From Candidatus Tiddalikarchaeum anstoanum (lineage in GTDB: Archaea; Nanobdellota; Nanobdellia; Tiddalikarchaeales; Tiddalikarchaeaceae), in assembly GCA_902385255.1 (NCBI GenBank), contig CABMEV010000013.1, positions 14,047 through 78,046 of the forward strand: a stretch of DNA of 64,000 nt, written 5' to 3'. A program made the translations under genes and the position numbers. This document shows positions 4,801-63,685 of this stretch, one piece after another. How positions within the stretch are numbered: the first letter of the stretch is position 1; each line of letters begins with the position of its first letter. Under the pieces are notes generated by a model that made no database searches, had not been told where the DNA came from, and saw only the letters and a program-made list of their open reading frames with translations.

Positions 4801-4874
4801 GGGTCCGTAGCTCAGCCTGGTAGAGCACCTGCCTTTTAAGCAGAGGGTCATGGGTTCGAATCCCACCGGGCTCA
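4801..4874 (+). tRNA. tRNA-Lys (anticodon UUU)
   Basis: GGGTCCGTAGCTCAGCCTGGTAGAGC D arm, anticodon loop CTTTTAA, T loop TTCGAAT, acceptor GGGTCCG/CGGGCTC with two G-U pairs. A.C mismatches at 27:43 and 49:65. No encoded CCA. Confidence 0.85.
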
Positions 4875-4895
4875 ATTCAGTAAGGTGAAAAAAAT

Positions 4896-5192: not shown

Positions 5193-6681
5193 AAATACGG
5201 AAAAAATTTTACTCGGTGCGTTCTTCAAAGAGAACAAATTGACAAACCACAACTTGGAAAGCTTCAACATATTCGTTGAAAAAGGGCTGCAAAAAGTTGT
5301 TAATGAAAATAAAACAATAATACCTGATATTTTACCAAAAGGTGTTAATGATCTAAGGATAAAACTTGGAAAGATATGGCTCGATAAGCCAAGCATAAAA
5401 GAAGCAGATGGAACGAGAAGACCAATATTCCCTTCCGAAGCCAGAATCAGGAATCTCACTTATGAATCACCAATATATATGGACATAACAGTTGAGAAAG
5501 ACGGGATAGAAGAGGAGACAAAAACAGTCCATGTCGGAAACCTACCTATAATGGTTCACAGCAAATACTGTTATCTTTTCGGAAAGAACGACCAGGAATT
5601 AATCGAGATGGGAGAAGACCCAAACGACCCTGGAGGTTACTTTGTAATAAACGGCACCGAGAGAGTCATAGTAGTAGTTGAAGACTTGGCTCCAAACAGA
5701 GTGTTCGTGGAGACGGGTTCTACTAATATTACTCACAAGGCAAAAGTATTCAGCGACGACGGCCAATACAAGATACTTCACGACTTAAACAGGATGAAAG
5801 ACGGCGCAATAAACATGACATTCACAAGAGTAAAAGCAGTCCCTGTGTTTGCAGTAGTAAAAGCATTAGGGCTTGTTGAAGACCAGGATATAGTAAAAGC
5901 ATTAGACCTCCCTGAAGAGTTCATGGGAGAAATATACGTCAACTTGTACAAGATAAGCGAGATACAAAACAAGGACGACGCGTTGGACCTGATAGGCAAG
6001 AAGATGGGAATAACATACAGCCCAAAAATAAGGCTTGAAAGGTCAGCAGAAGTATTAGACAATTTCCTGTTCCCTCACATAGGGCACGACAAGGCAAAAA
6101 GACTGCAGAAAGCGTATTACCTGTCAAAGATGGTCAGGAAATTAATGCTGTACTCGCACAATATAATCAAGGCAGATGATAAAGACCACTACAAGAATAA
6201 GAGATTAAGACTCTGCAGCAACATGATGGAGAGTTTATTCAGGGTCAGTTTCAAAATGTTCATAGGAGATATGAAATACAATTTTGAACGCTTAGTAAAG
6301 CGCGGAAAGTTGCCAAGCATAAGCAGCGTAACAAGAGCAAGACTGCTAACTAGCAGGATAAAAAGCAGCTTGGCAACAGGACAATGGGTTGGCGGAAGAC
6401 AAGGAGTCAGCCAGCACTTAGAGCGCGACAACTTCTTCGGAACACTGGCGCACTTAAGGCGTGTCGCATCACTATTGACAAGCCAGCGTGAAAACTTCGA
6501 AGCCCGTGACCTGCACCCATCACATTACGGAAAGATATGTTCAAGTGAGACTCCTGATGGTCCAAACGTAGGACTCAGGAAGAACTTGGCAATAACAGGA
6601 GAGATAAGCATATCCTGTGAAGAGAATGATAAAAGTATCATGGAAGCTATGGAAAGTAGCGGATTAAAGAGGCTTGAATAA
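5185..6681 (+). CDS. rpoB2: DNA-directed RNA polymerase subunit B'' (N-terminal half of Rpo2)
   Basis: 498 aa. Conserved position after rpoH. Motifs such as GYFVINGTERVIV and RDLHPSHYGKICSSETPDGPNVGL. Confidence 0.95.
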   Translation: MSENTEKILLGAFFKENKLTNHNLESFNIFVEKGLQKVVNENKTIIPDILPKGVNDLRIKLGKIWLDKPSIKEADGTRRPIFPSEARIRNLTYESPIYMDITVEKDGIEEETKTVHVGNLPIMVHSKYCYLFGKNDQELIEMGEDPNDPGGYFVINGTERVIVVVEDLAPNRVFVETGSTNITHKAKVFSDDGQYKILHDLNRMKDGAINMTFTRVKAVPVFAVVKALGLVEDQDIVKALDLPEEFMGEIYVNLYKISEIQNKDDALDLIGKKMGITYSPKIRLERSAEVLDNFLFPHIGHDKAKRLQKAYYLSKMVRKLMLYSHNIIKADDKDHYKNKRLRLCSNMMESLFRVSFKMFIGDMKYNFERLVKRGKLPSISSVTRARLLTSRIKSSLATGQWVGGRQGVSQHLERDNFFGTLAHLRRVASLLTSQRENFEARDLHPSHYGKICSSETPDGPNVGLRKNLAITGEISISCEENDKSIMEAMESSGLKRLE

Positions 6682-6684
6682 AAA

Positions 6685-8484: not shown

Positions 8485-8500
8485 AGGTGTCCTAAAAAAA

Positions 8501-11116
8501 ATGGTTGAAATAATAAAAGAAAAAGTTGATAGCATAGAATTCAGGGTTTTATCACCGAAGATAATCAAAGCGATGTCTTCAACAAAGATAATAACACCTG
8601 AATTGTACGACGCAGACGGTTACCCTGTAGAAGGAGGACTAATGAATCTGAGAATGGGAGTCATAGAGCCGGGACTTAGATGCAGAACATGCGGAGGAAA
8701 AGTTCACGACTGCGTAGGCCACTTCGGATATATAGAACTCGCAAGACCAGTAGTGCACATATACTACGTTAACTTCATATATGACGCATTAAGATGCACT
8801 TGTGCAAAATGCGGAAGAATATTACTTGATGATAAATCACTAGAAAGATACAAGCTTAAGATGAAAGTGATGAGCAAGCAGAGAGGAAAATTCGAGCAAT
8901 GGGATGTCTCGCATGAAGTAATAAGCAAAGCAAAAACAATATCAGTCTGCCCTCACTGCAACGAGAAGAAAATAAAACTAAAACTGAAAAAGCCGTCATC
9001 ATTCTACGAAGACAAAGTAAGACTCACACCAATAGATGTCCGTGAAAGACTTGAAAGGATACCTGACGAAGACGTTGAACTACTCGGGATGGACCCGGTC
9101 GGCGGAAGACCAGAATGGATGGTATTAACATTATTACCAATACCTTCAACAACAGTAAGGCCAAGTATTACTCTTGAAAGCGGACAAAAAAGTGAGGATG
9201 ACTTAACACACAAATTATCAGATATAGTAAGAACAAACCAGAGGCTTTATGAGAACTTAAACGCAGGAGCGCCGGAAATAATAATCGAAGACTTATGGGA
9301 CTTACTGCAATACCACGTAACTACATATTTCTCAAATAATGTAAGCCAGATTCCACCAGCAAGACACAGAAGCGGAAGACCGCTTAAGACACTTGCCGAG
9401 AGAATAAAAAGCAAAGAAGGAAGATTCAGAAAGAACCTTGCAGGAAAACGTGTCAACTTCTCAGCCCGTAGCGTAATCTCACCAGACCCAAACATAGGAA
9501 TCAACGAAGTGGGAATACCTGAAATAATGGCAAGCAAATTAACAATACCTGAAAGGGTTACAAGCTGGAACATTGACTGGCTGAAAGAGTTCATAAAATC
9601 TTATCCTAAATACCCTTGCGCGTTATACGTATTCACACCGGAAGGTTTCAGGAAAAAAGTAACAGAAGAGACTAAAGAAGTCTTGCTGCAGGAATTAGCA
9701 ATTGGCTACTCGGTCGAGAGAACAATCCAGAACGGGGATATAGTATTATTCAACAGGCAGCCAAGCCTTCACAAAATGAGCATAATGGTGCACCATGTGA
9801 AAGTGCTTCCTTACAAGACATTCAGGCTTAACCTAACAGTTACAGACCCTTACAACGCCGACTTCGATGGTGACGACATGAACCTGCACGTTCCACAAAC
9901 AGAGGAAGCAAGAGCGGAAGCTGAAGAATTAATGGATGTTACAACACAGATAATAAGCCCAAGACTTGGAACTCCAATAGTCGGATGCAAGCAAGACCAC
10001 ATCAGCGGATTATTCAGCCTGACAGGCAAAGATTCAAAATTCAACCGCGAAGAAGCATTCCAATTATTATCAAGAGCAGGAGTCTACGATTCCAACTTGA
10101 AATTTGACAAGGAAGGAATGGCTGAAGGAAAAGAGATATTCTCACAAATACTTCCTAAAGACTTATTCTATGTCGGAAAGAGCGGAACATGCAAGAAGTG
10201 TGCGACCTGCAAGAAAGAGGAATGCACAACTGACTCTTACGTAAAGGTTGACAAAGGACAACTACTATCAGGAGTAATAGATGACAAGAGCGTCGGTGCA
10301 AGAAAAGGATTATTGCTAAATGACATCGCAAAGAAATACACTCCAAAAGAAGTAAGCACGTACCTGCAAAGGATGGCTTTACTTGGAATAGCAACACTTG
10401 ACATCAGAGGATTCACAGTTCTCAGCTCAGACAACGACTTGCCTGAAGAAACTGTAAAAGAGATAAAGAATGTAATCTCAAAATCATTATCAAGCGTAAA
10501 TACAGTGATAAAGAACTACGAAGACGGAGAATTAGTATCCCTTCCTGGAAGAACACTTAGAGAGACTCTTGAACAGAAAATAATCATGCTGTTAAACCAG
10601 TCACGTAACCAGGTTGGAAGCTTAGTGTTAAGCAATGAAACCAAGGAAACAGGAAGCAGCATAATGACAAAGAGCGGAGCAAAAGGCAACCTGTTAAATC
10701 TTGCACAAATGGCAGGATGCGTCGGACAGCAAGTACTTAGAGGATTCAGAATAACAAGAGGATACAATGACCGTCCAACACCGCACTTTAAGAAAGGAGA
10801 CCTTGGAGCGGCAGCTCACGGATTCATACGCCACGGTTACAAAGGAGGACTCACTCCTTCAGAATTCTTCTTCCACGCAATAACATCACGTGACGCGACA
10901 ATGGATACAAGTATGAGAACTCCAAAATCAGGATACTTCCAGAGAAGAATGATCAATGCATTCCAGGATTTCAGAATAGATATGGACAGCAGCGTAAGAG
11001 CAAGCGACGGACACTTAATCCAATTCGCTTACGGAGAAGATGGAATAGATGTATCAAAGAGTGATGCAGGAAGTATAGATGTTGAACGATTAGTGAGGGA
11101 GGTTGCAGAATCATGA
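8501..11116 (+). CDS. rpoA1: DNA-directed RNA polymerase subunit A' (Rpo1N)
   Basis: 871 aa. [15 protein letters not shown] catalytic Mg motif and N-terminal zinc-binding Cys clusters. Confidence 0.95.
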
Positions 11117-19031: not shown

Positions 19032-20495
19032 ATGAAATTTTCAGACATTAAGAAGGAGTATATACTGGCAGCGATAATAATACTCGCATTAATACTCAGG
19101 CTTTACCAGTGGGATAATTACGCCTTCGCTTTCTATGATGAAGGAGTTCATGCATTTTTCGGAGTCGCATCCAGCATTAATCCCGTTATGGAGACACTAT
19201 ACCAGCCGCCAGTCCTCTTCCTACTTGAAGGAGCCATATATTCCATAATTCACTCAGTTTTAGTTTTCAGATTATTACTGATAATATTAAGTGTAATCTC
19301 AATAATACTTGCTTATATCTGGGTTAAGAATGATTACTCGGTGAATGAAGCATTGCTTATTGCACTCTTCCTTGCAACGGCACCGCTCCACATACTGCAC
19401 AGCCGATTCCTAAATCAAGACTCATTATTATTCTGCTTAGGGCTTGGTGTCCTTATATTAGTACAAACATATTCGAAAAAACCAAAGAAAGCATACTTAT
19501 TACTTGCAGGAATATTACTTGGAATAGGTGCGTTTACAAAATTCACCTTTTTAATGTTTAACATTATAGCACTGGCTTACGCGTTATATTTGAAAAAGAT
19601 ATCATTAAAGAAAGTTTCAAACATCATAATCGGAGAATCACTTATAATATTATTATTCATGCTGCCTTTAATAATAACATGGATTAAAAGCTCGGGAAGC
19701 ACTTACGCAATCACTAATTTTTTCAGCCAGTACGCTGCAGAGAACGTGGGTGAATCAACAATTACACCGCTCACAACCATATTTTACATAGGGCGCAGTT
19801 TCATCTTTTTAGGATTCAGCTTCATACTCCTTGTCTACACATTGTTAACAAATAAGAACTTAGACAGGAAACACTTATTCCTGATTTACTGGATAATATA
19901 CGCAATACTCATCTTATCATTATCATCAAAAGCAATGCTTAGATACTTATTAATGCAGAACTTGGCTTACATACCCATTTTCCTGCTTGCAATAAATGCA
20001 TTATTCAGTTTTAACAAGAAAGTATGGGCTCTGTTCATATTATTAATAATAGGATTGGACTCTTACTATTATTACATATTCATAACTAATCCTGTAAGCA
20101 TCCCTGAATTTTCAGCATTCTTCATAGAGACAAAGCCATTCATTGAAACGATTGCTTACTTGAGGCAAACAATGACAGTTAATGATTCAATAATAACCAA
20201 TGAGCCTTACCTGTTCATACCCATGGGATTAAACATTTACTCTGCGAATTACGAGAATCACATACTTTGCCCGAACAAGAACGTAAAATACTTAATCCTC
20301 ATAAATAGTTCACTAGGCTTTGACCTGTTTACTTACATGAATGACGTAACAAGATTAAGCAATTATTATTCTCTTGACAGGAACATATCCAATAGGGAGA
20401 CTACTTTCTACATATACAACGTTACAGGCAATCCTGCATGCGGTCCAATGATACCTCCGCTAAAAAGAGGATTATACCTTAAGGATATAATATAA
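19032..20495 (+). CDS. GT-C fold membrane glycosyltransferase (family 39/83-like, ArnT/PMT type)
   Basis: 487 aa, more than 10 predicted TM helices. Acidic first-loop motif YDEGVHAFFG. Soluble C-terminal tail. Confidence 0.55.
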   Translation: MKFSDIKKEYILAAIIILALILRLYQWDNYAFAFYDEGVHAFFGVASSINPVMETLYQPPVLFLLEGAIYSIIHSVLVFRLLLIILSVISIILAYIWVKNDYSVNEALLIALFLATAPLHILHSRFLNQDSLLFCLGLGVLILVQTYSKKPKKAYLLLAGILLGIGAFTKFTFLMFNIIALAYALYLKKISLKKVSNIIIGESLIILLFMLPLIITWIKSSGSTYAITNFFSQYAAENVGESTITPLTTIFYIGRSFIFLGFSFILLVYTLLTNKNLDRKHLFLIYWIIYAILILSLSSKAMLRYLLMQNLAYIPIFLLAINALFSFNKKVWALFILLIIGLDSYYYYIFITNPVSIPEFSAFFIETKPFIETIAYLRQTMTVNDSIITNEPYLFIPMGLNIYSANYENHILCPNKNVKYLILINSSLGFDLFTYMNDVTRLSNYYSLDRNISNRETTFYIYNVTGNPACGPMIPPLKRGLYLKDII

Positions 20496-26615: not shown

Positions 26616-27839
26616 ATGTCAGATGAAGACTTACTGAATTTTACAGAGCAATCACCGCAGCCAAAAGATGATTTATCAAGCCTTGCACAGCAAAGCCCCA
26701 GGCAGAAGCCTGTATTAGAAACACTTATTGAAATAATCAAAAAAAGATGGATAATAATATCTGTTGCAATAGCAGTGATAATAATCTCAATAGTTCTCAT
26801 TATAGTATTATCAGGAAATAATAACGGAGCTGGCAATAATATATTCTCATCCAATCCGATACTGTTAGATTATGAGAGGACTGAAAACTGCAGCAGATTA
26901 GAAATATCGCAGAACCAAGTTAGCAATACGGGCTGCAGCCCCATATCCAATTTCATAGTCAGATTAAACAATGAGATATTAAACATCAGCTTAAACACTC
27001 CGATAGCGCCTAGTGAAACCAGAACAATAGATTATTCAGAACGAAACAATTTAGAGCAAAACAATTCAGAAATACTAAACGCTAGCCAGCCCGAATCTTA
27101 TGAAATAATAACAATAACTGACCCGGAACTAATTGCTAACATCACTGAAGAGTCGAACGAGACAGCCGGAAATGAAACAATTGAAACACTGCCCGAACAA
27201 GGCAACATAGACGACTGCATAAACCAAGCGGATGATATATTTCATATCAGGGTGTTTAACAACGAAACAAGCCAGTGCCAGAATGTGCAATTAACTCCCA
27301 CCACAATATTAGAGGAGCATTTTTCTTCATTATCAAATTGGAATATTAATTATGGAAACAATACGTACGGCGTTGATAACGGGATGCTAGTATGCAATGT
27401 AATGGATCAGGAAACACCGTTGCTGGTTAGCGTATTGAATATTTCTAATATGAATTATTACTTTAAAGGAGATTTTAATATCCAGAAAGGATTTCTTATC
27501 CTATTCACCCGTATAGGACAGGATAATAATGCATATATTCTAATTATTGGGGAAAACTATGCAGAATTAATGAAAGTTTCTAATACTACAAATTCAGGCA
27601 TGATATACACAAGCACTCCTCAAATTAGCCTAAACAACTGGAATAATTTTGAAATAGTGAATTATAATAATATTATAAGGGTGTTTATAAACGGAGGGAG
27701 AATAATAGATTACACAGACACCGCTGAGCCATTAACGTCCGGAAATTTGGGGCTATTAACAACCAGGATGTATAATACAACAACTTATGACAGAATCATG
27801 ATATCAATTAAGGATATTGAAATAAGTGAATTAACATGA
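26616..27839 (+). CDS. membrane-anchored, sequon-rich surface protein with C-terminal concanavalin/LamG (DUF1080-like) domain
   Basis: 407 aa. N-terminal TM WIIISVAIAVIIISIVLIIVL. The C-terminal ~170 aa (...NWNNFEIVNYNNIIRVFINGGRIIDYTD...GNLGLLT...IKDIEISEL) follow the DUF1080/LamG jelly-roll pattern. Confidence 0.5.
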   Translation: MSDEDLLNFTEQSPQPKDDLSSLAQQSPRQKPVLETLIEIIKKRWIIISVAIAVIIISIVLIIVLSGNNNGAGNNIFSSNPILLDYERTENCSRLEISQNQVSNTGCSPISNFIVRLNNEILNISLNTPIAPSETRTIDYSERNNLEQNNSEILNASQPESYEIITITDPELIANITEESNETAGNETIETLPEQGNIDDCINQADDIFHIRVFNNETSQCQNVQLTPTTILEEHFSSLSNWNINYGNNTYGVDNGMLVCNVMDQETPLLVSVLNISNMNYYFKGDFNIQKGFLILFTRIGQDNNAYILIIGENYAELMKVSNTTNSGMIYTSTPQISLNNWNNFEIVNYNNIIRVFINGGRIIDYTDTAEPLTSGNLGLLTTRMYNTTTYDRIMISIKDIEISELT

Positions 27840-52238: not shown

Positions 52239-52385
52239 ATGTTAGATTCCTCCCTGATGAAAATACTTGCATGCCCAGACTGCAAAGGCGACTTGAAAGA
52301 GTCCAATTCTAAGCTAACATGCATTAAATGCAAGAGAGTTTACCAGATTAAAAAAGGCATACCAATACTACTACCTAAACAATAA
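52239..52385 (+). CDS. Trm112-family small zinc-ribbon-like protein
   Basis: 48-aa ORF, below the track cutoff: MLDSSLMKILACPDCKGDLKESNSKLTCIKCKRVYQIKKGIPILLPKQ*. Shows the LACP-x-CKG...Y.I..GIP.LL signature. Confidence 0.65.
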   Translation: MLDSSLMKILACPDCKGDLKESNSKLTCIKCKRVYQIKKGIPILLPKQ

Positions 52386-52390
52386 CAACG

Positions 52391-52400
52391 TTTATAAATA
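52391..52400 (+). promoter_or_regulatory. TATA-like box for the two-gene surface module
   Basis: TTTATAAATA lies ~58-67 nt upstream of TTG 52458. Strong SD GGAGGGGG (52440-52447) is ~10 nt before the start. Confidence 0.4.
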
Positions 52401-52457: not shown

Positions 52458-54746
52458 TTGAATAAGATTGGACAAGAATGTTTAGAAGGATTAGTAACAG
52501 GCGGCGCCGCTGTCGGCATTCCCATAATCGGTGCAGGCTTAGCTGATAATTTTGCCAGAAATCTTTCTCCTCATAATTACGTCGCCCAGGCAGAACTCGG
52601 GCTTGTATCACCTGATAAAATTGCATTCACAGGCAGTTATCCTCATAATGCAGTCGTTGAAAACACCTATTATTTTGACACAACAAAAACATTCCAATTA
52701 AATAATATAACGCAAAAATATAATCCCTTAGTTATTAACAATCCTAACATTGATAACAGCGGCGCACTAATCGGCCAGTACAGCAACGGCGCATGGGCTA
52801 CATCTAACGACCCAAACCTTACACTTTCAAACTTAAGCGATAAGAATCTTGGATTCCATTCCCCCGAATGCATACAAGATGTCGTAACACACGGTGAACC
52901 TGTTGCGAACGCATCGTTTGGCGCTCAAGGATTCTGGTCAGGTGCAGGAACATTCGCAGGCATAAACTTATTATTCGACGGAATAAAAAATTATAAGGCA
53001 GGCAATAAAAAAGCAGGAGCAATAGAGATTGGTGCAGGCGCCGGAATAACAGGAATTAGTACGATTCCAACAGCAGTATCATTAGCTGAGCAAAACACGA
53101 TTTACGCATCAAGCGCTTATAACACCACTAAAATATTAGCCGCGAAGAATATGTCGCTGCTTGGCGGCTCATTCATGCAGGGCTTAGGTTCAGGATTCCT
53201 AGGCAGTGCAGTCTTCGATGCCTTAAAATTCTTCTGGGACTGGGGCAAGAAAGGAGAAAAAAACCCAGACCATTTAGTCAAAGCAGGATGCAAAGCTGTA
53301 GCAGGCGCATCATTATTAAATTACGGCAGCAGCCTGGCAAATCTTGGCACTGCAACTTGGTATGCTAACTCTGTCGGACTTTCAGGAACCACTTTACTAA
53401 ATGGTGCAACAATGGTAAACGGAGGATACTTATACTCATCAACTATTTACACGTGCGGATTAACTAACGCTGTTGCTGCAACGACAACTGCACTTGGAGG
53501 ATTAGCACTAGGACTTGGAGTAGCACTTGGCATTTACGCAATTTACAAAATCGCAAAATATTTCTACAAAAAAAGACATGACAACGGACAAGTAAACCAG
53601 CAAGGAAATGGTCAGCAAGGCAACCAGCAATTACAAGGCCCTCCACAAAACCAGCAAGGCAACCAGAACCAGAACCAGCAACTTCAGAACCAGAATAACC
53701 AGAACCAGAACCAGCAACTTCAGAACCAGAATAACCAGAACCAAAACCAGAATCAGAATCAGCAAAACCAGAATCAGCAACTTCAGATTAACATCCCTCC
53801 TGTAAGTTATCACGTTTTTAACAAATTCTTACTTTCAGACATGATAGAGGATTTAGTAACAGAGCGCAGCAATTACAAAGCCAACCTGCACCATTTAAAA
53901 TACCATTTTAATACTGTGAATAACCAGCCATGCTACGAATGGAATGATAATAATATAAATAGAACCTTAACCAAGCAGGACATACAGAACGTATTAGTGA
54001 AAGCACAGAACCAGGCTTTAACACCTGATGAGGAAGCATTAAGAGATGCGTTCTACTTATCATTCAAGATAAATAATTACAACAAGTACAAAAACTTCCT
54101 TAACACAATTTTCAACACTGACATTCACCAGTTACCATTCACATCCGCTGCAGTGAACAACCCAGGACTGGAAAATTACCTTACAGGAAACAACTTTACA
54201 TTATTACTAGGCGAGTTAAGCAACAGAAATAATGCTCAATTACTAACACCATTATTGAACGGAGGAGGCATACAAGCTAACGCGTTATGGGATAATCATA
54301 ATACTGGAGAAGTCGAATCCCAGGAATTAATCAAGTACTTATTACTTAGACAATCATATGAGAGAGCAGTAGCTGAACTCAAAGTAGTACAGGGCGCAGT
54401 AAGGGTTGAAGACATAATGTATTACTTCGTTAAATACAACACTGAGAAAGGCGGACTGTTTGACACATCAAAAACTCCAACGTTTAAAAGAATAGATTAT
54501 GCAAAAGCGCACAATTATAGCCAGAATGCACCAATAAACAACGTAGGTGATGTGACTAGCGGGATTGACAAATTGTTCAACTTAGACTTGCTTGCATCAT
54601 TATTCAATAAGTCAACAGTACAGAATAACGTTCCAAATAATGACTCTTCATACGCTGCCCGCTTAATCGCTAATGTGAGAGCGAACACTAAAATCCACAG
54701 TATAAATGCAAATTCGAAATTTAAGAAGATATATAATGCTATTTGA
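52458..54746 (+). CDS. Gly-zipper-rich polytopic membrane protein with polyN/Q linker and ~320-aa C-terminal domain (hypothetical)
   Basis: 762 aa, TTG start behind GGAGGGGG. Several Gly/Ala-rich hydrophobic segments (GLVTGGAAVGIPIIGAGLA, GAIEIGAGAGITGIS, ALGGLALGLGVALGIYAIY). NQ tract at about residues 377-443. The stop lies 2 nt before the giant-gene ATG. Confidence 0.7.
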   Translation: MNKIGQECLEGLVTGGAAVGIPIIGAGLADNFARNLSPHNYVAQAELGLVSPDKIAFTGSYPHNAVVENTYYFDTTKTFQLNNITQKYNPLVINNPNIDNSGALIGQYSNGAWATSNDPNLTLSNLSDKNLGFHSPECIQDVVTHGEPVANASFGAQGFWSGAGTFAGINLLFDGIKNYKAGNKKAGAIEIGAGAGITGISTIPTAVSLAEQNTIYASSAYNTTKILAAKNMSLLGGSFMQGLGSGFLGSAVFDALKFFWDWGKKGEKNPDHLVKAGCKAVAGASLLNYGSSLANLGTATWYANSVGLSGTTLLNGATMVNGGYLYSSTIYTCGLTNAVAATTTALGGLALGLGVALGIYAIYKIAKYFYKKRHDNGQVNQQGNGQQGNQQLQGPPQNQQGNQNQNQQLQNQNNQNQNQQLQNQNNQNQNQNQNQQNQNQQLQINIPPVSYHVFNKFLLSDMIEDLVTERSNYKANLHHLKYHFNTVNNQPCYEWNDNNINRTLTKQDIQNVLVKAQNQALTPDEEALRDAFYLSFKINNYNKYKNFLNTIFNTDIHQLPFTSAAVNNPGLENYLTGNNFTLLLGELSNRNNAQLLTPLLNGGGIQANALWDNHNTGEVESQELIKYLLLRQSYERAVAELKVVQGAVRVEDIMYYFVKYNTEKGGLFDTSKTPTFKRIDYAKAHNYSQNAPINNVGDVTSGIDKLFNLDLLASLFNKSTVQNNVPNNDSSYAARLIANVRANTKIHSINANSKFKKIYNAI
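53664..53735 (+). repeat. perfect 36-nt tandem duplication inside the polyN/Q-coding tract
   Basis: cagaaccagaaccagcaacttcagaaccagaataac occurs twice back to back (53664-53699, 53700-53735). It is embedded in CAG/AAC/CAA-rich sequence spanning ~53584-53786. Confidence 0.9.
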
Positions 54747-54748
54747 AA

Positions 54749-57700
54749 ATGGTAATTAAAAATGAAGCAAGAAATGTATTATTAATACTTTTAATACTTT
54801 TAGTGCCTGCTGTGACATTCGCTGCAAGAGCATACATCAGCTTCAATGTTAACGGCGTATTAGTGTCAAGCGACGGCTTCCCAATATCAAGCAGCGTCAA
54901 ACTGAACTGTTCATGCAATAATTACCCTTCATCACTTGCAAAATTTGAAACCACCACAACAACAGACCCAGCCAGCGGGGCATACTTAATATCAACAATT
55001 AATACACCTCTTTCATGCCCTTACACAGCATGCACGTTCACATGTACAGTAATCCCAACAAGCCTGTCACCTTATGCCACATCCACTTTCCAAGTAGGGC
55101 CATTCACAGGCACTTACACATCATACTTTAACAGGACAATAGATGTAACATACCAGTCCAATCTTGACTTTGGAGGAACATTCTCATCAGCGGCGGCTAA
55201 GATATCACAATCACCTTTCATATTCACATTCACCCCAAGCATAGCAGTCAACGACTGCAGATTCAGCACAAGCAGCATAGGATATTATTCGATGACTGCA
55301 GGCAGCATGACAAAGAATGGCACTGCTGATTATGTCGGAAACTATTCCAACCCAAACACAGGAGAGTACACAAGCAACTTATTCGTCAGCTGCCAAAATA
55401 GCCTGACGACAAAAACCAACAATAACACTTACACCTTCGACTTCGCACCGCCAAAAATAGTGACAGTATCAAACACGCCAGGGTATTATTCAACAGTTCT
55501 GCAAAACATGAATATCACCACGGACACGTTAAGCAAGTGCAGCCTGACAGCGAATTACAGCGATGCAAACAAGTGCCAGACAAACTACAGCAGTTTTATA
55601 ACATGCCCATTGACATTCACACCTTCCCCAAGCGGCTCGTACGATTTTCCAGTATCATGCATTGATGAAACAGGCAACAAGAATAACAGTGCAGTAATCA
55701 TAAATTACGTAATAGACATAACTCCCCCAAGTACGGCAGTGAGCGGACAAACCGCATTCGAGAAGGGCTCAACAGGGACGCCTTTTAACTGGACGTTAGA
55801 GGACCCTCTTGTAAACTCTGCACACCCGGGAACTTATTATATATACTTGAATAATACACAAATTGATAACAACACGTGGGATGCGAATAATTTCATAATA
55901 AACAGCGGATACATAGACACGTCAACGACTGCATTTTACAACTACACTTTGTACGTAAAAGACTTTATGGCTAACACTAATTCAAGCACAGTATTCGTAT
56001 CAATAGGAGATACTACTCCTCCTTTATTCACCATAAACACACCTATTAACAATCAAGTATACAGTTCAAGTGTACTGCTTAATCTAACATCTGCTTCAGC
56101 AGACGTTAATGAATGCTTCGTTAACGCTACAGGATCAAACACTACAATGAACAGGGTTGGAAGCTCTTTCACCCTGCCTGCAATATTCACTAACGGTTCG
56201 AAATACTTAATGTTCTACTGCAATGATACATCCAATAACTTAAACAGTGCAGGAATACATTTTACAATCGATGCCGTACCGCCGGTTATAATATCACCTG
56301 GCGATAAAACATTCAGCGTAAACTCCACTCAAACAATTATCTTCCAGCTTTATGACTTCGCCCAAGGAGGATGGTATTATTTCACGCTAAATGGAACAAA
56401 TTACGCCTCTGTTAACAACTGGACCAGTACTGCTAATAATGTATCATTAACAATAGACACTAACCGCGGCGTAGGATTATGGAATTATACAATCTTTGCA
56501 AATGACAGCTTTGGTAATACTAACACTTCGGCAGTAATGGTAACAATAATAGATGATGTCAGCCCTGTATTAACAATAAATTCCCCAAGCAATAACCAAT
56601 TATTTATGACTGCCCCAAATTTTAATATAACAACCAATGAAGCTGTTATTGGGTGCAACTTAAGCATTGATAATTTAGAGAACCAGTCAATGGCTGAGTT
56701 ATCAGCGAATAATTTCGGATTAATCACTTCGGTAATCGACGGCAGCCATAACGTAACATTTTACTGCACAGATAATTATAATAATAAAGGATTTAACACT
56801 GCAAATTTCAGCGTTGACTTAAACCCTCCTTACATAATCAGCCATGCATCATACGCGAAGTATTCAATGAACAGCACGAACAATATTAGCTGGGTATTAG
56901 GCGACGCGTACAAAACAGGCTATTATAAAATATTAATAAATGATACTTTATACACTCCGATAACAAGCTGGGTTAACAATTCTTTATTCAATATAACTGT
57001 TGACACTAATAGGGGAATAAGCTACTGGAATTATACAATAGTATATAATGACAGCATTGGAAGAGAGAATACTGATTCAGTATTCCTGGATGTAGTTGAT
57101 GATATCTCCCCAGCAATCACGATAAAATCACCAGGCAACAATGAGATGTTCACGTCAAATCCCAGATTCAACATCACAGTCAGCGAGACAGTAATTGGAT
57201 GCGGCTTAAGCATTGATTATGGAATTAACCAAAGCATGGATGCCTTGTCAGGATTAGATTACGGACTTATCACTACTGCAGCCGACGGCAACCACAACTT
57301 AACCTATTATTGTACAGACAATTACAATAATGTCGGAACTAATTCAACAACATTTAGAACAGACACTTATCCTCCTTACATTATTACAGCGCCTTTAGTT
57401 GACGTTTTCGAATTTAACAGCACAGGAAGCATTAACTGGACAATAGGGGACTCTTATCCAAGCACAGGGTTTTATTACGTACTCGTAAACGGGACAGCTT
57501 ATTATCCAATAACAATCTGGGCTAACAATTCTTTATTCAACATACCTGTTGACACTAATAGGGGTGTAGGATTATGGAATTATTCACTAATATTCAACGA
57601 CTCAGCAGGCCATACAGCAAGCAATAATTACTTGTTAAGCATAGTTGACACTCTTCCTCCAATAGTTGGAGTCGTAATAATGCAGGACCATGGTGCTGGA

Positions 57701-60700
57701 ACATGGATATTATCAAATATTACAAGACTGCAATGCACCAATGACGAAGCGGGAGCGCACTTCAATTTCGCTTACGCATTAGACGACTATGTTTGGACAA
57801 ACATAACAGGGTGCCAGAATGATATTGACGGATTATGCGACTGGACAATACCGAGAGAGACAAAAGATTTCAATATTAGCTGCACCGCCACAGATAATTA
57901 CAGTAATACAGGCGGCTACGCTTATAATAATTACGCAGGGCTTGACATGAGTCCTCCAACAATAAGTTTAATACCTTTTTCATTAATTTACACAGAACCT
58001 TTTACAATCTCGGTTGACGCGAACGATGCATACATAGGCGTTGCAAACGTCACGTACTGGTATACGAATATTACAGGGTCTTACTTAATCGGGACAAACA
58101 ATACTTCACCTTTCAACTATACATGGACTGTACCTTTTGACTTAGAGAACAAGTACATCAACATAAGCGCCAGCGCTTATGACTATGCAGGATGGGGCCC
58201 TGCAACAGATACCCTATCAAGCATCGGCGTTAACATGGTAGAAGAGCCTCCGGTTGCAATATTCTCAATGAATAAAGCATTGGATGGGAATACCACCAGA
58301 CTCCTTGATGCAACAGGAAGCTATGACAATGACTTCGCAGTTGACAACACACAAATATACTATAATTATCAGATAAGCAATGACAACAACACGTACACAA
58401 ACATAACAGGGTGCACAGACATAAACACGACTTGTTTATGGGATACTACACTAACTTACCCAACCTGCATGCAGGGAGATTCTTGTTATGTAAGAAGCGA
58501 AGTTTACGACTATTATTATAAAACAAACAGCAACGTGGAAATGTATTATATAGATAATACTCCTCCGGGAATAACACTAAACCCTTTAAGCAACCATATA
58601 ATGTCAGGCGATAATCAGACAATAATCTGCCAGGCAAACGACACTTACGACTTTGACAACTTATTCAATATGACATTAATCGCTTACTTCGACAACGGCA
58701 CAGGATACGCCATGCATGTGTTAAATACTACATCAAATACTGATACGATCCGTACAGACTGGATGTTAAATGCAGGATGGCCAAACCAACAGGGAATAAT
58801 AATACAATGCAGCGCTACGGACGGCAATAATTTTACAGGAATCTCAAACAGCACGAGTATCGGACTGGAAAGAGTCGGACCTTACTTCTGGAATGACTCG
58901 ATGAACGTTTCGCAGAATTCAGTGCTTGGAATTGGAGGAATAGTAAAATACTCCGACTACGTAAATGATACATTCCCAGGCGTTGACCAAGTATACTTTG
59001 ACACCAGCAACGGATTATTAAAAGCGAATGCTGGAATGACAAGCGGAGAATACTATTACAATGAAATCTGCACAAGCACTAACATAATAATCTGGAATGG
59101 CACATTAGCCAATGACACTATAGGAAATCCTAATATTACAACATTTGCCACACCTCACTCTTGGTATTGTGATACCAGCAGCCCAGAAATAACAAGCTGC
59201 GGAATAAATACATCAAATACATTATACAAGGGCGAAGTTTCAAGGTTAAGCTGCACAGTAACAGACATAGGTTTTAGCACTGTAAATACTGTATTATTCA
59301 CAACTAACAGGGAGTTTAAGGCAAATAATACAGGGAATACTTATTTTGAAGACTTCATCTGCAACGAGTCAAATAGCGGCAATTACACTTGGAGCAGCGT
59401 ATTCGCAAATGATTCATTAAATAACAGCGGACAAATACTCGTGAATAAGTGGGTTAATTGTGACGCTAATCCTCCAGTAATATCCTCACCTATTGCCAGC
59501 CCAGACACCGTAAACCAGTACGAGAGCGTATGCATAACAGTGAACGTAACGGACAATAACCCTAACATGGTCAGGCTGAATATGAGAAGGCCTGATGCGA
59601 CAACATTCTATGTTAACATGAACAAGAGCGGCGTTTTTGGATGCGGAGGAGAATTTTACAATAATACTTACACGTACGGTTATAACTTGACGCTAAACCA
59701 GCAGGGAGTATATTATATAACACAAGTTTACGCTGATGATGAAGGATTACAGTGGAGCACTATTAATCCAAACACTCCAATATTCTCAATGGACAACCAG
59801 CCTCCAATAATTGAAAACGTAACCCTTCTTGGAGGAAAATATTTCACAAAAGGATGGGAGAACAGCACTTTCAGAGCCAGCGTATACGACCAGGGACTAA
59901 GCGGAGTTGATAAAGTATTGTTCGAATTCAGCGGAGTAAACGAGACTGGAATTTACAATACAAGCAGTTATTATGATTACACTTTCACATGCGCAGGAAG
60001 CTGGGAGCAGGAGAATAATTATACACTAACACACGTTATTGCCAATGATACTAACGGCAACAAGGCAGCGATAAGCGAGAACATATCAATAGTCTGCGAC
60101 ACCAAACCTCCATTAATAACAGATACTACTGTTAACTCATTAAACATACTGCAATATGACAGTGTCTGCATAAGCGCGAACGTTACAGATTCATTCATAA
60201 AAGGAGTCTGGGCAAACCTCTACATTAACGGCACATTAACAAGCATTAACCTAACGAGTCCTTCACCTTGCGGTGCCGGGACTTTTGGCGCGTATTATAC
60301 TGCAATAACCCAGAATAATATATTACTCAACTCAACAAGCGCGATAGACTTTTCAGGAAACTATAATGAAAGCTTTGCAAACATCACCGTGCAGGTTGTT
60401 GCATCATTTTATCCTTCAATAATGAACTGCACACTTAATAATTCAGTACTCCACATCGGCGACATTGGAAAACTAAGCTGCGATATCAGGGACAACGAAG
60501 GAGTTGACACTGCATGGTTCTCAAAATATGACAATAAAACGAGCACCACATCCAATATCACAATGAGCACTGAAGGACTCACAACTTACTACTACAATTT
60601 TGCCTGCGACGCGCAGTCTTATAATTATACAATAGGCAGAGTATTCGCAAATGATACAGACACCATAACGCATACTAACAGTACTATTGTCAACTTGAAC

Positions 60701-63685
60701 GTGTACTGTGACATGCAGCCTCCGAAGATTAATAATATTCAATTTAGCAGCAACAAGTCATACCAGTACAGTACTATATGCGTGAATGCCACGATTACAG
60801 ATGATATGCAGTTAGGTGATGTATGGTTAGAATTATACGAGCCTTACATTGGTGCTTATTGGAAACAGATGAGCAAGACTGCCACTTGCGCATTCGGAAA
60901 CAACACTTATGGTGCGGATATAGAATTATACGAGCCTGGATTTTATGAAATATTCAGAATCGGCGCAGTAGACTACTTGAATAATTATAATGAGACTTGG
61001 ATAAACCAGACTGTTGAATCAGTGGATAATTCAATACCTAGTGTTATAATACAAAGCCCTGTCAATGCAACATACGGTTCATCAAATGTGACACTAACAT
61101 ATTATGCTAATAATGAAATCATAACCAACCAATGGTACGTATTGGACGCTAACCCTATTGTTTACTCAGGAAACTCCACCATAATAACAGGTTTAAGCGC
61201 AGGCTCCCACAAGATAACTACGTACATAAACGATACTTATGGAAATGTAGGAAGCAATAGCGTAATGTTTACAATAAATACCACTGTATTCAGGAATGAC
61301 CTGCAGGTAAATAGTTTAGAACTGCCTTACAAACCAATCGTGTCATACCCAGGATATGGGTATTATTTAATAAACTCAAACATCACCAACAAAGGAGATC
61401 GTGATGCAGTAGATGTTAAAATAAAATATTACGACAACGGCGTATTATTTTATAACGACACAATTAACATATTATTCAACGCCACAACTCAATCGGAAGC
61501 TCACTGGCAGGATTTCACAATAGGACTGCATAACATAACTGTAATCGCTGAACCTCAGCAGAACGAGACTAATGTATTGGATAATTCGAAGACAGGAATT
61601 ACAACAGCAGTATACTTAATAGATGATGTTTCAGTTTCAACAGCCACGCCTGACACCGTCGCACCGAACACGTCATTCATAACAAGAGTTTACGAATACA
61701 GCGATGTTGGAGGCTCATTAAGCATAACCAATCACTTAATACCTCATCCGTCATTAATAATTAACGGCGACTCATTTAACACCAGCACAATAAACTGGCA
61801 CGTATTAAACACAGTAACTTACCACATGACCAGCCCAGGAACTCTTGGAACTTATTACGTATCTACAGATTCATGGATTAACGGCTTCCCTGGAAATAAG
61901 ACAACCAACGAGACTGTAGAAGTAATAAATCCTCACTCGCCGCTCTTCTCGATAGACTTGACAATAATCCCTCCAAGTTTCGAACCATGGATAGAGAATA
62001 CAGTAATAGCAGACATATTCAATTATGGTAATACAACAGCCCATAACGTGAACGCTACACTAAACATGCCAGCAGGAATCAGCTTAATAAGCGGAAACGT
62101 CACGCAGCACTTTGGCGACTTAGTTAACGGTTCATCAATACAGGCAATATGGACTGTGCGCGCAGATTATTCAGGAAGCTTCACACTGGGAGTTAACGCT
62201 TCATGCGATGAGGATACAGCTTCAGAGAATCAGTCATTCAGCGATGATGCAATATTACAAGTAGACCACGTTGATTACCCAACAAGCGTAAAAGTCGACG
62301 GCAACGCTACAATAATAGTCTACATAAATAATGCAGGAGGAAACGCGACTAATGTCAATGTACAATTAGTGCCGGCTGTTAATATGACAGTGTCAGGCAA
62401 TCAGACTTTAAAGACAGTCAATATACCGCAAAACAGCGCGAATTACTCAGTAAGTTTCGATGTCAACCTTAAGAACAGCGGAGACAACCAAGCATTCAAA
62501 CTAGTATTAACACATACGCCAACAAGTTATTATGAAGAGTATACAGGCCACATAAATGTGTGGAGGGATACTACACCACCAAGCGGTACGCCGGTAGTCA
62601 CAGGTTATTCAACAGTTAACGGAAAGAACGTACTCCAATGGACTCCTATCAGCGAAGCATATTATTATTATATCTATAAGGGAATTAATGGAGAAACAGA
62701 CTTTAACAAGACAGGCTATTCTGCAATAGTGCCAAGCACTACAACAAGCTGGATTGACAATAATGTTGAACTTAACAAATGGTATTATTACCGTATCACT
62801 GCAGTTGACGAAGTAGGCAATATAGGAAATTTCAGCGAGTACGTAAGAGTCATCCCAGTTGATACGTACCAGATTGACAGGGAACTTGAACAACTGCAGA
62901 GACAACTAGACCAATTCGTTAACAATCAGACAATAACACAGAGAGAGGAAGCAATGATAACTCAGATAGATGCGAACATAAGCAGGTTATACAATGATAT
63001 ACTAATATTATCAAACATTAGCAGATTGTTAACACCTGAACAAGCAGCAGCAATATCCAGTATAAGACATACTCTCATCGACGCCAAGAACCAGGAAGAC
63101 CCGGGTCTTAGAAAGACATACTTACTGCAGGCTGAGTACGAGTTTGCATTATTCAACAGGGGAGGTTACAGCGTAGGATTGCAGGAATTGCATGATAATA
63201 GGAATGCCGGAAACTTATCAATAGACACGACAACTAACTTAGTTACAGCAACAATAAACGGAAGAACAAGCAATAAGTATACAATCATTAGAATTATAAC
63301 TAATCCTACGAATCTTACATTTGCGAATATCACACTGCAATTCCCAATACCTAATGATGCAGTATTCGAAGAGCAAGTTGCCACAAACGGAAGCCAATTA
63401 GTTTATAACATGACTGATTTAGCTCCGGGTGTTTCAACAAGCATAGAATACACTTATTATACATACTCAAACTTTGACAATAATGAACGAATCAGTATAA
63501 CTATGGTTCCAATACTTCCTCCAGCACCTTTAGAACCAGTAACAGGATTCATAAGTTTGGAGAAAATCGAACCTGGAAGCGCAAAATGGTACCTTACAGG
63601 AGTAGTCTGGATTGGAGTCATAATACTCACACTTACATACTTCTTCAAAGGAAAACTCCAAAGTTTAGCAAGCAAGATATTGTAA
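54749..63685 (+). CDS. giant (~2,980 aa) multi-domain, sequon-dense surface protein with N-terminal signal peptide and C-terminal TM anchor
   Basis: Uninterrupted 8.9-kb ORF. Signal-like MVIKNEARNVLLILLILLVPAVTFA. Repeated beta-rich modules, CARDB-like modules, an FN3 module (YYRITAVDEVGNIGNFSEYVRVIPVD) and a coiled coil. C-terminal TM WYLTGVVWIGVIILTLTYFF. An alternative TTG start lies at 54743. Confidence 0.85.
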   Translation: MVIKNEARNVLLILLILLVPAVTFAARAYISFNVNGVLVSSDGFPISSSVKLNCSCNNYPSSLAKFETTTTTDPASGAYLISTINTPLSCPYTACTFTCTVIPTSLSPYATSTFQVGPFTGTYTSYFNRTIDVTYQSNLDFGGTFSSAAAKISQSPFIFTFTPSIAVNDCRFSTSSIGYYSMTAGSMTKNGTADYVGNYSNPNTGEYTSNLFVSCQNSLTTKTNNNTYTFDFAPPKIVTVSNTPGYYSTVLQNMNITTDTLSKCSLTANYSDANKCQTNYSSFITCPLTFTPSPSGSYDFPVSCIDETGNKNNSAVIINYVIDITPPSTAVSGQTAFEKGSTGTPFNWTLEDPLVNSAHPGTYYIYLNNTQIDNNTWDANNFIINSGYIDTSTTAFYNYTLYVKDFMANTNSSTVFVSIGDTTPPLFTINTPINNQVYSSSVLLNLTSASADVNECFVNATGSNTTMNRVGSSFTLPAIFTNGSKYLMFYCNDTSNNLNSAGIHFTIDAVPPVIISPGDKTFSVNSTQTIIFQLYDFAQGGWYYFTLNGTNYASVNNWTSTANNVSLTIDTNRGVGLWNYTIFANDSFGNTNTSAVMVTIIDDVSPVLTINSPSNNQLFMTAPNFNITTNEAVIGCNLSIDNLENQSMAELSANNFGLITSVIDGSHNVTFYCTDNYNNKGFNTANFSVDLNPPYIISHASYAKYSMNSTNNISWVLGDAYKTGYYKILINDTLYTPITSWVNNSLFNITVDTNRGISYWNYTIVYNDSIGRENTDSVFLDVVDDISPAITIKSPGNNEMFTSNPRFNITVSETVIGCGLSIDYGINQSMDALSGLDYGLITTAADGNHNLTYYCTDNYNNVGTNSTTFRTDTYPPYIITAPLVDVFEFNSTGSINWTIGDSYPSTGFYYVLVNGTAYYPITIWANNSLFNIPVDTNRGVGLWNYSLIFNDSAGHTASNNYLLSIVDTLPPIVGVVIMQDHGAGTWILSNITRLQCTNDEAGAHFNFAYALDDYVWTNITGCQNDIDGLCDWTIPRETKDFNISCTATDNYSNTGGYAYNNYAGLDMSPPTISLIPFSLIYTEPFTISVDANDAYIGVANVTYWYTNITGSYLIGTNNTSPFNYTWTVPFDLENKYINISASAYDYAGWGPATDTLSSIGVNMVEEPPVAIFSMNKALDGNTTRLLDATGSYDNDFAVDNTQIYYNYQISNDNNTYTNITGCTDINTTCLWDTTLTYPTCMQGDSCYVRSEVYDYYYKTNSNVEMYYIDNTPPGITLNPLSNHIMSGDNQTIICQANDTYDFDNLFNMTLIAYFDNGTGYAMHVLNTTSNTDTIRTDWMLNAGWPNQQGIIIQCSATDGNNFTGISNSTSIGLERVGPYFWNDSMNVSQNSVLGIGGIVKYSDYVNDTFPGVDQVYFDTSNGLLKANAGMTSGEYYYNEICTSTNIIIWNGTLANDTIGNPNITTFATPHSWYCDTSSPEITSCGINTSNTLYKGEVSRLSCTVTDIGFSTVNTVLFTTNREFKANNTGNTYFEDFICNESNSGNYTWSSVFANDSLNNSGQILVNKWVNCDANPPVISSPIASPDTVNQYESVCITVNVTDNNPNMVRLNMRRPDATTFYVNMNKSGVFGCGGEFYNNTYTYGYNLTLNQQGVYYITQVYADDEGLQWSTINPNTPIFSMDNQPPIIENVTLLGGKYFTKGWENSTFRASVYDQGLSGVDKVLFEFSGVNETGIYNTSSYYDYTFTCAGSWEQENNYTLTHVIANDTNGNKAAISENISIVCDTKPPLITDTTVNSLNILQYDSVCISANVTDSFIKGVWANLYINGTLTSINLTSPSPCGAGTFGAYYTAITQNNILLNSTSAIDFSGNYNESFANITVQVVASFYPSIMNCTLNNSVLHIGDIGKLSCDIRDNEGVDTAWFSKYDNKTSTTSNITMSTEGLTTYYYNFACDAQSYNYTIGRVFANDTDTITHTNSTIVNLNVYCDMQPPKINNIQFSSNKSYQYSTICVNATITDDMQLGDVWLELYEPYIGAYWKQMSKTATCAFGNNTYGADIELYEPGFYEIFRIGAVDYLNNYNETWINQTVESVDNSIPSVIIQSPVNATYGSSNVTLTYYANNEIITNQWYVLDANPIVYSGNSTIITGLSAGSHKITTYINDTYGNVGSNSVMFTINTTVFRNDLQVNSLELPYKPIVSYPGYGYYLINSNITNKGDRDAVDVKIKYYDNGVLFYNDTINILFNATTQSEAHWQDFTIGLHNITVIAEPQQNETNVLDNSKTGITTAVYLIDDVSVSTATPDTVAPNTSFITRVYEYSDVGGSLSITNHLIPHPSLIINGDSFNTSTINWHVLNTVTYHMTSPGTLGTYYVSTDSWINGFPGNKTTNETVEVINPHSPLFSIDLTIIPPSFEPWIENTVIADIFNYGNTTAHNVNATLNMPAGISLISGNVTQHFGDLVNGSSIQAIWTVRADYSGSFTLGVNASCDEDTASENQSFSDDAILQVDHVDYPTSVKVDGNATIIVYINNAGGNATNVNVQLVPAVNMTVSGNQTLKTVNIPQNSANYSVSFDVNLKNSGDNQAFKLVLTHTPTSYYEEYTGHINVWRDTTPPSGTPVVTGYSTVNGKNVLQWTPISEAYYYYIYKGINGETDFNKTGYSAIVPSTTTSWIDNNVELNKWYYYRITAVDEVGNIGNFSEYVRVIPVDTYQIDRELEQLQRQLDQFVNNQTITQREEAMITQIDANISRLYNDILILSNISRLLTPEQAAAISSIRHTLIDAKNQEDPGLRKTYLLQAEYEFALFNRGGYSVGLQELHDNRNAGNLSIDTTTNLVTATINGRTSNKYTIIRIITNPTNLTFANITLQFPIPNDAVFEEQVATNGSQLVYNMTDLAPGVSTSIEYTYYTYSNFDNNERISITMVPILPPAPLEPVTGFISLEKIEPGSAKWYLTGVVWIGVIILTLTYFFKGKLQSLASKIL
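56009..57646 (+). repeat. three tandem ~543-549-nt (181-183 aa) two-domain coding repeats in the giant gene
   Basis: Unit starts at 56009 (DTTPPLFTINTP), 56552 (DDVSPVLTINSP) and 57098 (DDISPAITIKSP); next boundary at 57647 (DTLPPIVG). Conserved strings VDTNRG(V/I)(G/S)(L/Y)WNY and YCTDNYNN. Confidence 0.85.
59170..61030 (+). repeat. three tandem ~610-635-nt two-domain coding repeats (X-Y units) in the giant gene
   Basis: The recurring CD-x-x-PP-x-I boundary occurs at ~59459 (CDANPPVI), ~60094 (CDTKPPLI) and ~60706 (CDMQPPKI). X-type boundaries lie at ~59183, ~59798 and ~60409. Conserved NYT...ANDT and QY.S.C...VTD strings. Confidence 0.75.

Follow-up and report, generated by a model that had tools for sequence, protein, structure and literature searches.

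We analysed a 64,000-nucleotide (nt) stretch of contig CABMEV010000013.1 of Candidatus Tiddalikarchaeum anstoanum (positions 14,047 to 78,046, forward strand), called the window below, and in it a gene encoding a giant protein of 2,978 amino acids (aa). The reading that we favour, at a probability of about 55%, is that this is a head-on-stalk surface-coat or contact glycoprotein, type-I membrane-anchored, heavily N-glycosylated and fibre-like. The plan of its family is a head with conserved cysteines (in most members), an expandable spacer of immunoglobulin (Ig)-like and CARDB-like modules, and an anchor formed by an FN3 module, a helical region, a beta-rich segment, a hinge and a transmembrane (TM) helix. 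The prediction of a cell-surface, C-terminally anchored, glycosylated and repeat-built protein is well supported: since the protein combines an export signal, a single C-terminal TM helix, a 2.1-fold excess of N-x-S/T sequons that is seen family-wide, and Ig-like, CARDB-like and FN3 modules, it is placed at the cell surface, in agreement with the original prediction. It is built from familiar parts, being a large glycosylated Ig-repeat surface protein from which no new mechanism emerges; new here are the family, its fixed locus, the expandable spacer, its own head and anchor, and a partner gene.

DPANN archaea are mostly uncultivated, and how they build their envelopes and hold on to hosts is poorly understood. 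Their surface-layer (S-layer) protein has not yet been determined experimentally (bioRxiv 10.1101/2023.10.27.564410). The genes of the window are archaeal (split RpoB, RpoA', EF2, a TFIIB-family factor, RtcB and archaeal ribosomal proteins) and the relatives of the giant are labelled Nanoarchaeota or Candidatus Nanoarchaeia, which is consistent with an archaeal DPANN origin.

The gene is a single reading frame:

54749–63685, + strand: gene of the giant surface protein (2,978 aa and a stop codon), from the reading of the open reading frame (ORF) and colinear homologs.

Its likely start is the ATG at 54749, the earliest possible one being the TTG at 54743, and it runs without internal stops to the stop codon at 63683–63685. 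At 8,937 nt it takes up 14% of the window, and no competing ORF longer than 98 aa is found in the other frames across the same region. Together with the colinear giants, this upholds the earlier description of one uninterrupted 8.9-kb ORF. An identical 2,978-aa sequence is present in the public protein collection (P0001). DNA repeats within the gene reach no more than 75% identity over 138 nt, hence repeat collapse in the assembly is unlikely. A longer cytoplasmic tail hidden by a frameshift at the A-run past the stop was ruled out, as the other frames encode no homolog-like tail.

A whole-protein search of 5.8 billion proteins yielded only two full-length relatives, P0002 (3,180 aa, 41% identity at 90% coverage, labelled 'Nanoarchaeota archaeon') and P0003 (2,576 aa, 33% identity, labelled 'archaeon CG07_land_8_20_14_0_80_38_8'); the other matches share Ig repeats alone. 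With the third colinear giant, P0028 (3,224 aa), there are three giants of 2,576–3,224 aa to which our protein is colinear over about 2,700 aa at 30–41% identity. An anchor profile without the FN3 module (aa 2706–2978), run exhaustively against 1.84 billion representatives, matched 16 proteins, including 'Candidatus Nanoarchaeia' fragments annotated merely as fibronectin type III domain-containing. Short members of the family are P0027 (816 aa), P0029 (695 aa), P0031 (777 aa) and P0032 (797 aa). In P0027, P0031 and P0032 the head, modules N1–N3, leads straight into the FN3–helical–beta–TM anchor with no array between them. P0029 has no head and consists of one A-type module and CARDB-like modules, followed by the anchor. 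Profile scans of genome and metagenome contigs added no members to those from the protein searches, the nine-sequence alignment being too diverse for such a scan. The relatives derive from the metagenome-assembled genomes Zod_Metabat.1304 (GCA_016931175.1) and CG07_land (GCA_002779595.1) and from JGI sample 3300037067.

The spacer thus ranges from almost nothing in the 695–816-aa proteins to about 23 modules, and it has gained and lost modules among the giants as well: P0002 is longer by about 187 aa in the A/B array, and in P0003 most of the region corresponding to aa 1000–1400 is missing. By its sequence the giant is an over-extended version of a basic design of some 700–800 aa, into which about 23 Ig/CARDB modules have been inserted as a spacer. 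The anchor also occurs in a paralog type, P0033 (1,362 aa; L007 10001–14089), which combines a shortened helical part with the beta-rich segment and the TM helix, but has a different N-terminus and no FN3 module. As the P0033 gene stands directly after SecD/SecF, the anchor module is reused outside the fixed locus of the family. Searches of Protein Data Bank (PDB) sequences and profiles with the whole protein and with its C-terminal 784 aa gave no matches, and a description of the family was not found in a literature search. The alignments define a small lineage-specific family, not described before, whose head and FN3–helical–beta anchor are its own.

We counted 145 N-x-S/T sequons in the protein, or 4.9 per 100 aa. 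The 26 sequons in the first 620 residues, cited in the original prediction as a sign of extreme density, were counted again. Shuffling gives an expectation of 68.6±7.0 (z≈11, 2.1-fold excess), and the reversed control motif is found 78 times. Of the other window proteins tested, nearly all have 0–1.6 sequons per 100 aa, and the excess is 1.8–2.3-fold in every family member examined. The sequons are under selection. The composition is acidic, with 255 D+E against 110 K+R.

The N-terminal part comprises two elements:

54749–54832, + strand: signal-peptide-like N-terminus, aa 1–28, ending in A-R-A before Y (hydrophobicity analysis, homolog conservation).
54830–55723, + strand: N-terminal head, modules N1–N3, aa 28–325 (family alignments; cysteines conserved family-wide).

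The signal peptide was judged by inspection and hydrophobicity. The N-terminus starts with MVIKNEARN, continues with a hydrophobic core of 15 residues (Kyte-Doolittle 19-residue maximum 2.5) and ends with A-R-A before Y, a signal-like N-terminus having been noticed before; the layout is the same in the homologs. A class III (pilin-type) or Tat signal was excluded, since there is no G/A ahead of the hydrophobic core and no RR.

For the head, a search against PDB sequences and profiles gave zero matches, and the head profile retrieved nothing from the 5.8-billion-protein set, a weak negative as the family's own members were not returned either. As regards an adhesive or ligand-binding domain, the only hints are sub-threshold matches to CarboxypepD_reg and CBM_35 in homologs; the resemblance of module N1 to CarboxypepD_reg is seen in the short homologs only (22–29 bits, cut-off 32.3). 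The AlphaFold2 (AF2) model of aa 1–330 has a predicted local distance difference test score (pLDDT) of 40 and is unusable.

The head is followed by the longest part of the spacer:

55724–57661, + strand: alternating B/A Ig-like modules B1 A1 B2 A2 B3 A3 B4, aa 326–971 (self-BLAST, internal hidden Markov models (HMMs), Pfam Big_13).
57662–58888, + strand: E/F modules E1 F1 E2 F2, aa 972–1380 (internal HMMs, Pfam Big_7).
58889–61039, + strand: D/C modules D1 D2 C1 D3 C2 D4 C3, aa 1381–2097 (internal HMMs, Pfam Big_7).
61040–61285, + strand: fourth A-type Ig-like module, aa 2098–2179 (internal HMMs).

About 27 beta-rich modules, with the recurring types A to F, can be told apart in the whole protein by self-comparison and internal HMMs, and there are 14 linkers of the form [D/C]-x(1-3)-PP; the earlier count of more than 20 modules with recurring D/C-D-x-x-PP linkers is thereby borne out. 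Within aa 326–971 an A/B unit of 182 aa recurs at 40–55% identity. Alignment of the module types against each other with hhalign showed no significant relation, the profiles being shallow. Two Pfam domains, and no others, exceed their thresholds in the giant: Big_13 (PF19077) with 31.0 bits against the gathering cut-off of 27 at aa ~614–690, and Big_7 (PF17957), cut-off 24.1, with 27.9 bits at aa 1083–1129 and 25.4 bits at aa ~1705–1761. Hence the N-terminal 1,900 aa or so, earlier thought impossible to assign to any named family, are in part Big_13 and Big_7.

The spacer continues with CARDB-like modules and leads to the FN3 module of the anchor:

61331–62560, + strand: four beta modules, aa 2195–2604, the first, third and fourth CARDB-like and the second without assignment (Pfam, via P0002, P0003 and P0028).
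62555–62863, + strand: FN3 module, aa 2603–2705 (family profile, BLASTP, AF2/Foldseek).

The three CARDB-like modules (aa 2195–2294, 2398–2498 and 2499–2604, the second module being interposed at aa 2295–2397) had been named from the window sequence. In that sequence itself Pfam CARDB (PF07705) stays below threshold, with a best score of 16.8 bits (aa 2208–2271) against 22.7, and modules 3 and 4 have only weak matches to TRAP_beta, DUF11, NPCBM_assoc or DUF7363. However, the assignment stands via the homologs, in which the orthologous modules exceed 22.7 bits: module 1 in P0003 (27.9), module 3 in P0003 (29.3) and module 4 in P0002 (23.6) and P0003 (35.9). P0028 has three CARDB stretches, with 50.1 bits.

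The FN3 module is the best-conserved part of the protein, with 64% identity to P0002 and 52% to P0003. It had been called clear, yet Pfam fn3 (PF00041, cut-off 25 bits) has no match at E ≤ 1 in the window protein, P0002 or P0003. The evidence for FN3 comes from its homologs and from structure prediction. A three-sequence family profile of the module retrieves the fn3-annotated proteins P0014 and P0015 (E 1e-15 and 3e-12), and in BLASTP the module aligns to aa 167–265 of P0015, in which Pfam fn3 spans aa 177–264. The AF2 run on aa 2195–2978, made with a three-sequence alignment, has a mean pLDDT of 53 and is usable only at aa ~2505–2715; the FN3 module, with pLDDT 70–80, is its best-predicted part. 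The top Foldseek matches of this model are generic tandem FN3/Ig arrays.

The remainder of the anchor is composed of four elements:

62864–63163, + strand: helical region, aa 2706–2805, four heptad-like helices with breaks (AF2 secondary structure, family alignment).
63212–63508, + strand: membrane-proximal beta-rich segment, aa 2822–2920, family-conserved and of no named family (AF2, family alignment).
63509–63586, + strand: Pro-rich hinge PILPPAPLEP (aa 2921–2930), (I/V)TG(F/Y) motif and short polar linker (family alignment).
63587–63682, + strand: C-terminal TM helix, aa 2947–2966, and a 12-aa Lys-containing tail (hydrophobicity, family alignment).

In the AF2 model aa 2706–2805 form four helices (pLDDT ~54–75), with a heptad-like 3-4 spacing recognised by eye. 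They are interrupted by breaks such as LLTPEQ at 63026–63043, which the three closest giants share without change and which is degenerate in other members, and the region is therefore not one continuous rod. Of the coiled-coil stalk proposed for it, the heptad-like helices remain, but the region is segmented and spans only about 100 aa; rather than a single long rod, it is more likely a segmented coiled coil or a bundle. The region is a putative oligomerisation module.

Between the helices and the Pro hinge lies the beta-rich segment of about 100 aa, overlooked in the original prediction, for which AF2 gives partial strands at low confidence. No significant relation between this segment and the CARDB/Ig or other modules of the same protein was detected by hhalign, with shallow profiles. 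The (I/V)TG(F/Y) motif (63539–63550, aa 2931–2934) follows the Pro-rich stretch, 12–16 aa before the TM helix, and is conserved across the family, so it could be a processing or sorting signal. PGF-CTERM/archaeosortase and other known sorting signals were dismissed, since the motif is (I/V)TG(F/Y) and the NCBIfam models are silent, the NCBIfam scan of the giant returning 0 families. The TM helix, WYLTGVVWIGVIILTLTYFF (aa 2947–2966), is the only strongly hydrophobic segment besides the N-terminus and is followed by a tail of 12 aa with three Lys. The Pro hinge, the single TM helix and the short basic tail are thus as first described. The signal-like N-terminus and the single C-terminal TM helix are shared by the homologs examined.

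Seven loci were compared: the window, L001, L002 (with L009/L010, close relatives of P0003), L006, L005, L008 and L011. In all seven the family gene, one per locus, stands directly after the Cbf5–(Mtq2-like methyltransferase)–Trm112 cluster. Where the contigs reach far enough (the window, L001 and L005), this cluster is downstream of the ribosomal-protein/SecY/L34e cluster. The Mtq2-like methyltransferase gene between Cbf5 and Trm112 is present in 6/6 related loci and was not found in the window (tblastn, whole window). Trm112 of the window is a small unlisted ORF at 52239–52388. The features between it and the giant gene are as follows:

52391–52400, + strand: TATA-like box TTTATAAATA, behind Trm112 and ~58 nt ahead of the start of the partner gene.
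52458–54746, + strand: upstream partner gene, 762 aa, with a stop 2 nt before the ATG of the giant and no Pfam or NCBIfam assignment.

The same TTTATAAATAAAAAAA element immediately precedes the short family members in L005 and L008, and TTTATAAATA is a candidate archaeal promoter of an operon of the partner and the giant. The partner, for which no Pfam or NCBIfam family was matched, begins with a sequon-bearing N-terminal part and continues with a Gly-rich hydrophobic stretch, a strong TM segment (~aa 338–366), KYFYKK, a Q/N-rich linker and a C-terminal domain of ~330 aa. It looks like a bitopic membrane protein with a C-terminal domain that is probably cytoplasmic. A tandem repeat of 36 nt at 53661–53787 (3.3 copies, 89% matches, AACCAG-rich) codes for the Q/N-rich linker and is likely a length-variable region.

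The partner is fused in the window (762 aa) and in L006 (717 aa; 2517–4670, with a 4-nt overlap with the giant gene) and split in two genes in L001 (295 + 876 aa; 6415–9946) and L002 (332 + 515 aa; 3206–5765). The homology to the window partner is weak, with E 4e-4 for L006, 3e-11 for the split genes of L002 and 0.003–0.01 for L001. Homologous partners occur at 4/4 giant loci and 0/3 short loci, and abut or overlap the giant gene in three of the four; the pairing of the two genes, recognised earlier in the window, thus extends to every giant-form locus.

The favoured reading, a head-on-stalk surface-coat or contact glycoprotein, suggests the following mechanism. The protein would be exported by the Sec system, its signal would be cleaved, and many of the 145 sequons would be N-glycosylated by an AglB-type oligosaccharyltransferase, the C-terminal TM helix keeping the protein in the membrane. 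The helical segment would probably mediate oligomerisation. An Ig domain measures about 4 nm, so that the ~27 modules would amount to ~100 nm, and the head would be displayed at a distance set by the spacer, ~100 nm here against ~20 nm for the short orthologs. The head would then make the functional contacts, the giant form would have a longer reach towards another cell or surface, and the co-transcribed bitopic partner would probably be required to hold or assemble the long form. On this reading the giant may be the principal surface-coat or contact protein of the lineage.

The design is comparable to that of the bacterial 'periscope' fibrillar adhesins (SasG, Rib, Ebh), which consist of a head, a tandem-repeat stalk whose length varies by gain and loss of repeats, and an anchor. 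As in a fibrillar adhesin, a stalk, here of ~23 Ig/CARDB-like modules, lies between the head and the anchor, here a C-terminal TM helix, and stalk length varies between orthologs. Unlike the periscope adhesins, the giant has a type-I TM anchor rather than a sortase/LPXTG one, its repeats are diverged (at most 55% aa identity) rather than near-identical, it is dense in N-glycosylation sequons, and no adhesive domain was identified in it. The ARMAN-type Mia14 surface proteins are likewise large secreted DPANN proteins with PKD/Ig-like and CARDB-like modules (PMC5498576). These are strain-specific, six of eight are predicted to be laterally acquired, and a role in cell–cell interaction was proposed for them (PMC5498576), whereas the family of the giant lacks a propeller and is conserved by vertical descent at a housekeeping locus.

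Several observations weigh against the favoured reading. The head is absent from the locus ortholog P0029, so it is not strictly required, and no binding domain was identified in it (AF2 pLDDT 40, empty PDB and profile searches). The occurrence of the partner with the giants is a correlation from only seven related genomes. Oligomerisation through the helices is something that we infer, AF2 confidence being moderate to low outside aa 2505–2715. The codon adaptation index relative to the ribosomal-protein genes of the window is 0.65, a mid-rank value that is uninformative as an expression proxy. Finally, structural envelope proteins are found at conserved core loci more typically than adhesins are, and the location agrees at least as well with a housekeeping protein of the envelope as with the host attachment suggested in the original prediction.

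The last point leads to the alternative of a canonical S-layer protein, in which the heads would form the canopy of a two-dimensional lattice, the anchor and the spacer would be the pillar setting the width of the pseudo-periplasm, and host contact would not be its role. This is a possibility to be taken seriously, if clearly the less probable one. It agrees with the core-genome locus, syntenic in seven genomes with one family gene each, with the strong TATA-like element directly upstream in the short-form loci, and with the short orthologs of ~700–800 aa, which suit an envelope of ~20 nm. The signal peptide (by inspection), C-terminal membrane anchor, acidic composition and dense sequons are those of archaeal S-layer glycoproteins (PMC5744192). 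The helical segment near the C-terminal TM helix recalls Sulfolobales SlaB and the tetrabrachion of Staphylothermus marinus, glycoproteins with a beta-rich extracellular part, a helical coiled-coil-type segment and a C-terminal TM, whose stalk determines how far the outer structure stands from the membrane (PMC5744192). However, the helical part of the giant is only ~100 aa in four helices, a beta-rich segment precedes the TM helix, the stalk is mainly a tandem Ig array, no PDB chain matches in sequence, and neither of the two proteins is among the top 50 Foldseek matches. More generally, no match to known S-layer families (SlaA/SlaB, halobacterial csg, Methanosarcina DUF1608 type) was found in Pfam, NCBIfam or PDB. 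Putative S-layer or anchoring proteins of DPANN archaea are MJ1_0160, MJ1_0707, MJ1_0299 and MJ1_0309 of Nanobdella aerobiophila, NEQ300 of N. equitans and Micr_00292 of Micrarchaeum (bioRxiv 10.1101/2023.10.27.564410). Like them, the giant has a signal peptide, several Ig-like folds, many sequons and no homology to classical S-layer families, and it shares the C-terminal TM helix with the MJ1_0299, MJ1_0309 and MJ1_0707 type. Compared by description, these candidates have ~4–5 Ig folds and 13–17 sequons (MJ1_0160 being 1,000 aa long), against ~27 modules and 145 sequons in the giant, whose family has its own head and FN3–helical–beta anchor. Moreover, the four-fold range of ortholog length would mean a pseudo-periplasm of ~20 to ~100 nm in cells that, in this group, are only a few hundred nm across, and P0029 has no head.

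It is quite unlikely that the protein is a substrate-capturing scaffold, in which polysaccharide or particulate substrates, instead of cells, would be bound by the CARDB/Ig modules and a CarboxypepD_reg-like, possibly CBM-like head. The CarboxypepD_reg scores of the short homologs (22–29 bits), a weak CBM_35 match in the head of P0032 (E 0.0014), and the matches of Big_13, Glucodextran_B and CHB_HEX_C type in the paralog P0033 point that way, but all are below the curated cut-offs, the head of the window protein shows none of them, and Pfam and NCBIfam reveal a catalytic domain neither in the giant nor in the adjacent genes. Least probable by far is a secretion or invasion giant of the SPEARE type, or else an assembly artefact or pseudogene. 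The nanohaloarchaeal SPEARE (SVXNc_0300, 9,409 aa) is also a giant, Sec-exported, membrane-anchored DPANN surface protein with long runs of Ig/FN3-like domains, and proteins of this type are proposed to mediate host contact (PMC10266531). SPEARE proteins have a VirB4/TraG-like ATPase domain and a VirB4-like neighbour, and they are located in variable regions. The giant, on the other hand, has no ATPase, protease or other enzymatic domain (Pfam, NCBIfam), a single TM helix at the extreme C-terminus and a conserved core locus; no VirB4-like neighbour is seen, the upstream gene having no Pfam match and the downstream flank in the window covering only 315 nt. An artefact is contradicted by the uninterrupted ORF, its colinearity with three independent giants from other assemblies and the low identity (at most 75%) of the DNA repeats.

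A bolder version of the contact reading seems unlikely to us. In it the family and the partner would form a lineage-specific trans-envelope module, not recognised before, in which the length of a surface fibre encoded at the core locus is tuned by gain and loss of Ig modules and, in the long forms, a dedicated bitopic partner with a large cytoplasmic domain couples host contact at ~100 nm to the membrane or the cytoplasm of the symbiont. If it were true, fibre length would be adapted to how thick the envelope of the host is.

For the head-on-stalk glycoprotein that we favour, the practical consequence is a DPANN envelope candidate that is easily located, as one gene at a fixed position beside the ribosomal-protein/SecY/Cbf5 cluster, with a spacer whose length varies four-fold among related genomes and a partner that occurs only with the long forms. 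We predict that the length of surface fibres or the thickness of the envelope tracks gene length, and that the protein is abundant and glycosylated.

Some other genes concern glycosylation and secretion. A 407-aa ORF of the window (26616–27839, + strand), with 13 sequons (3.2 per 100 aa) and a 3-keto-disaccharide hydrolase/DUF1080-type domain, probably encodes another secreted glycoprotein. The window also encodes a glycosyltransferase of the PMT_2 family (dolichyl-phosphate-sugar type; 19032–20495, + strand). In CG07-type relatives a PMT_2-like multi-TM gene stands directly downstream of the giant gene (L002 13524–14585, L010 7215–8786), and this adjacency hints that the surface protein is tied to glycosylation.

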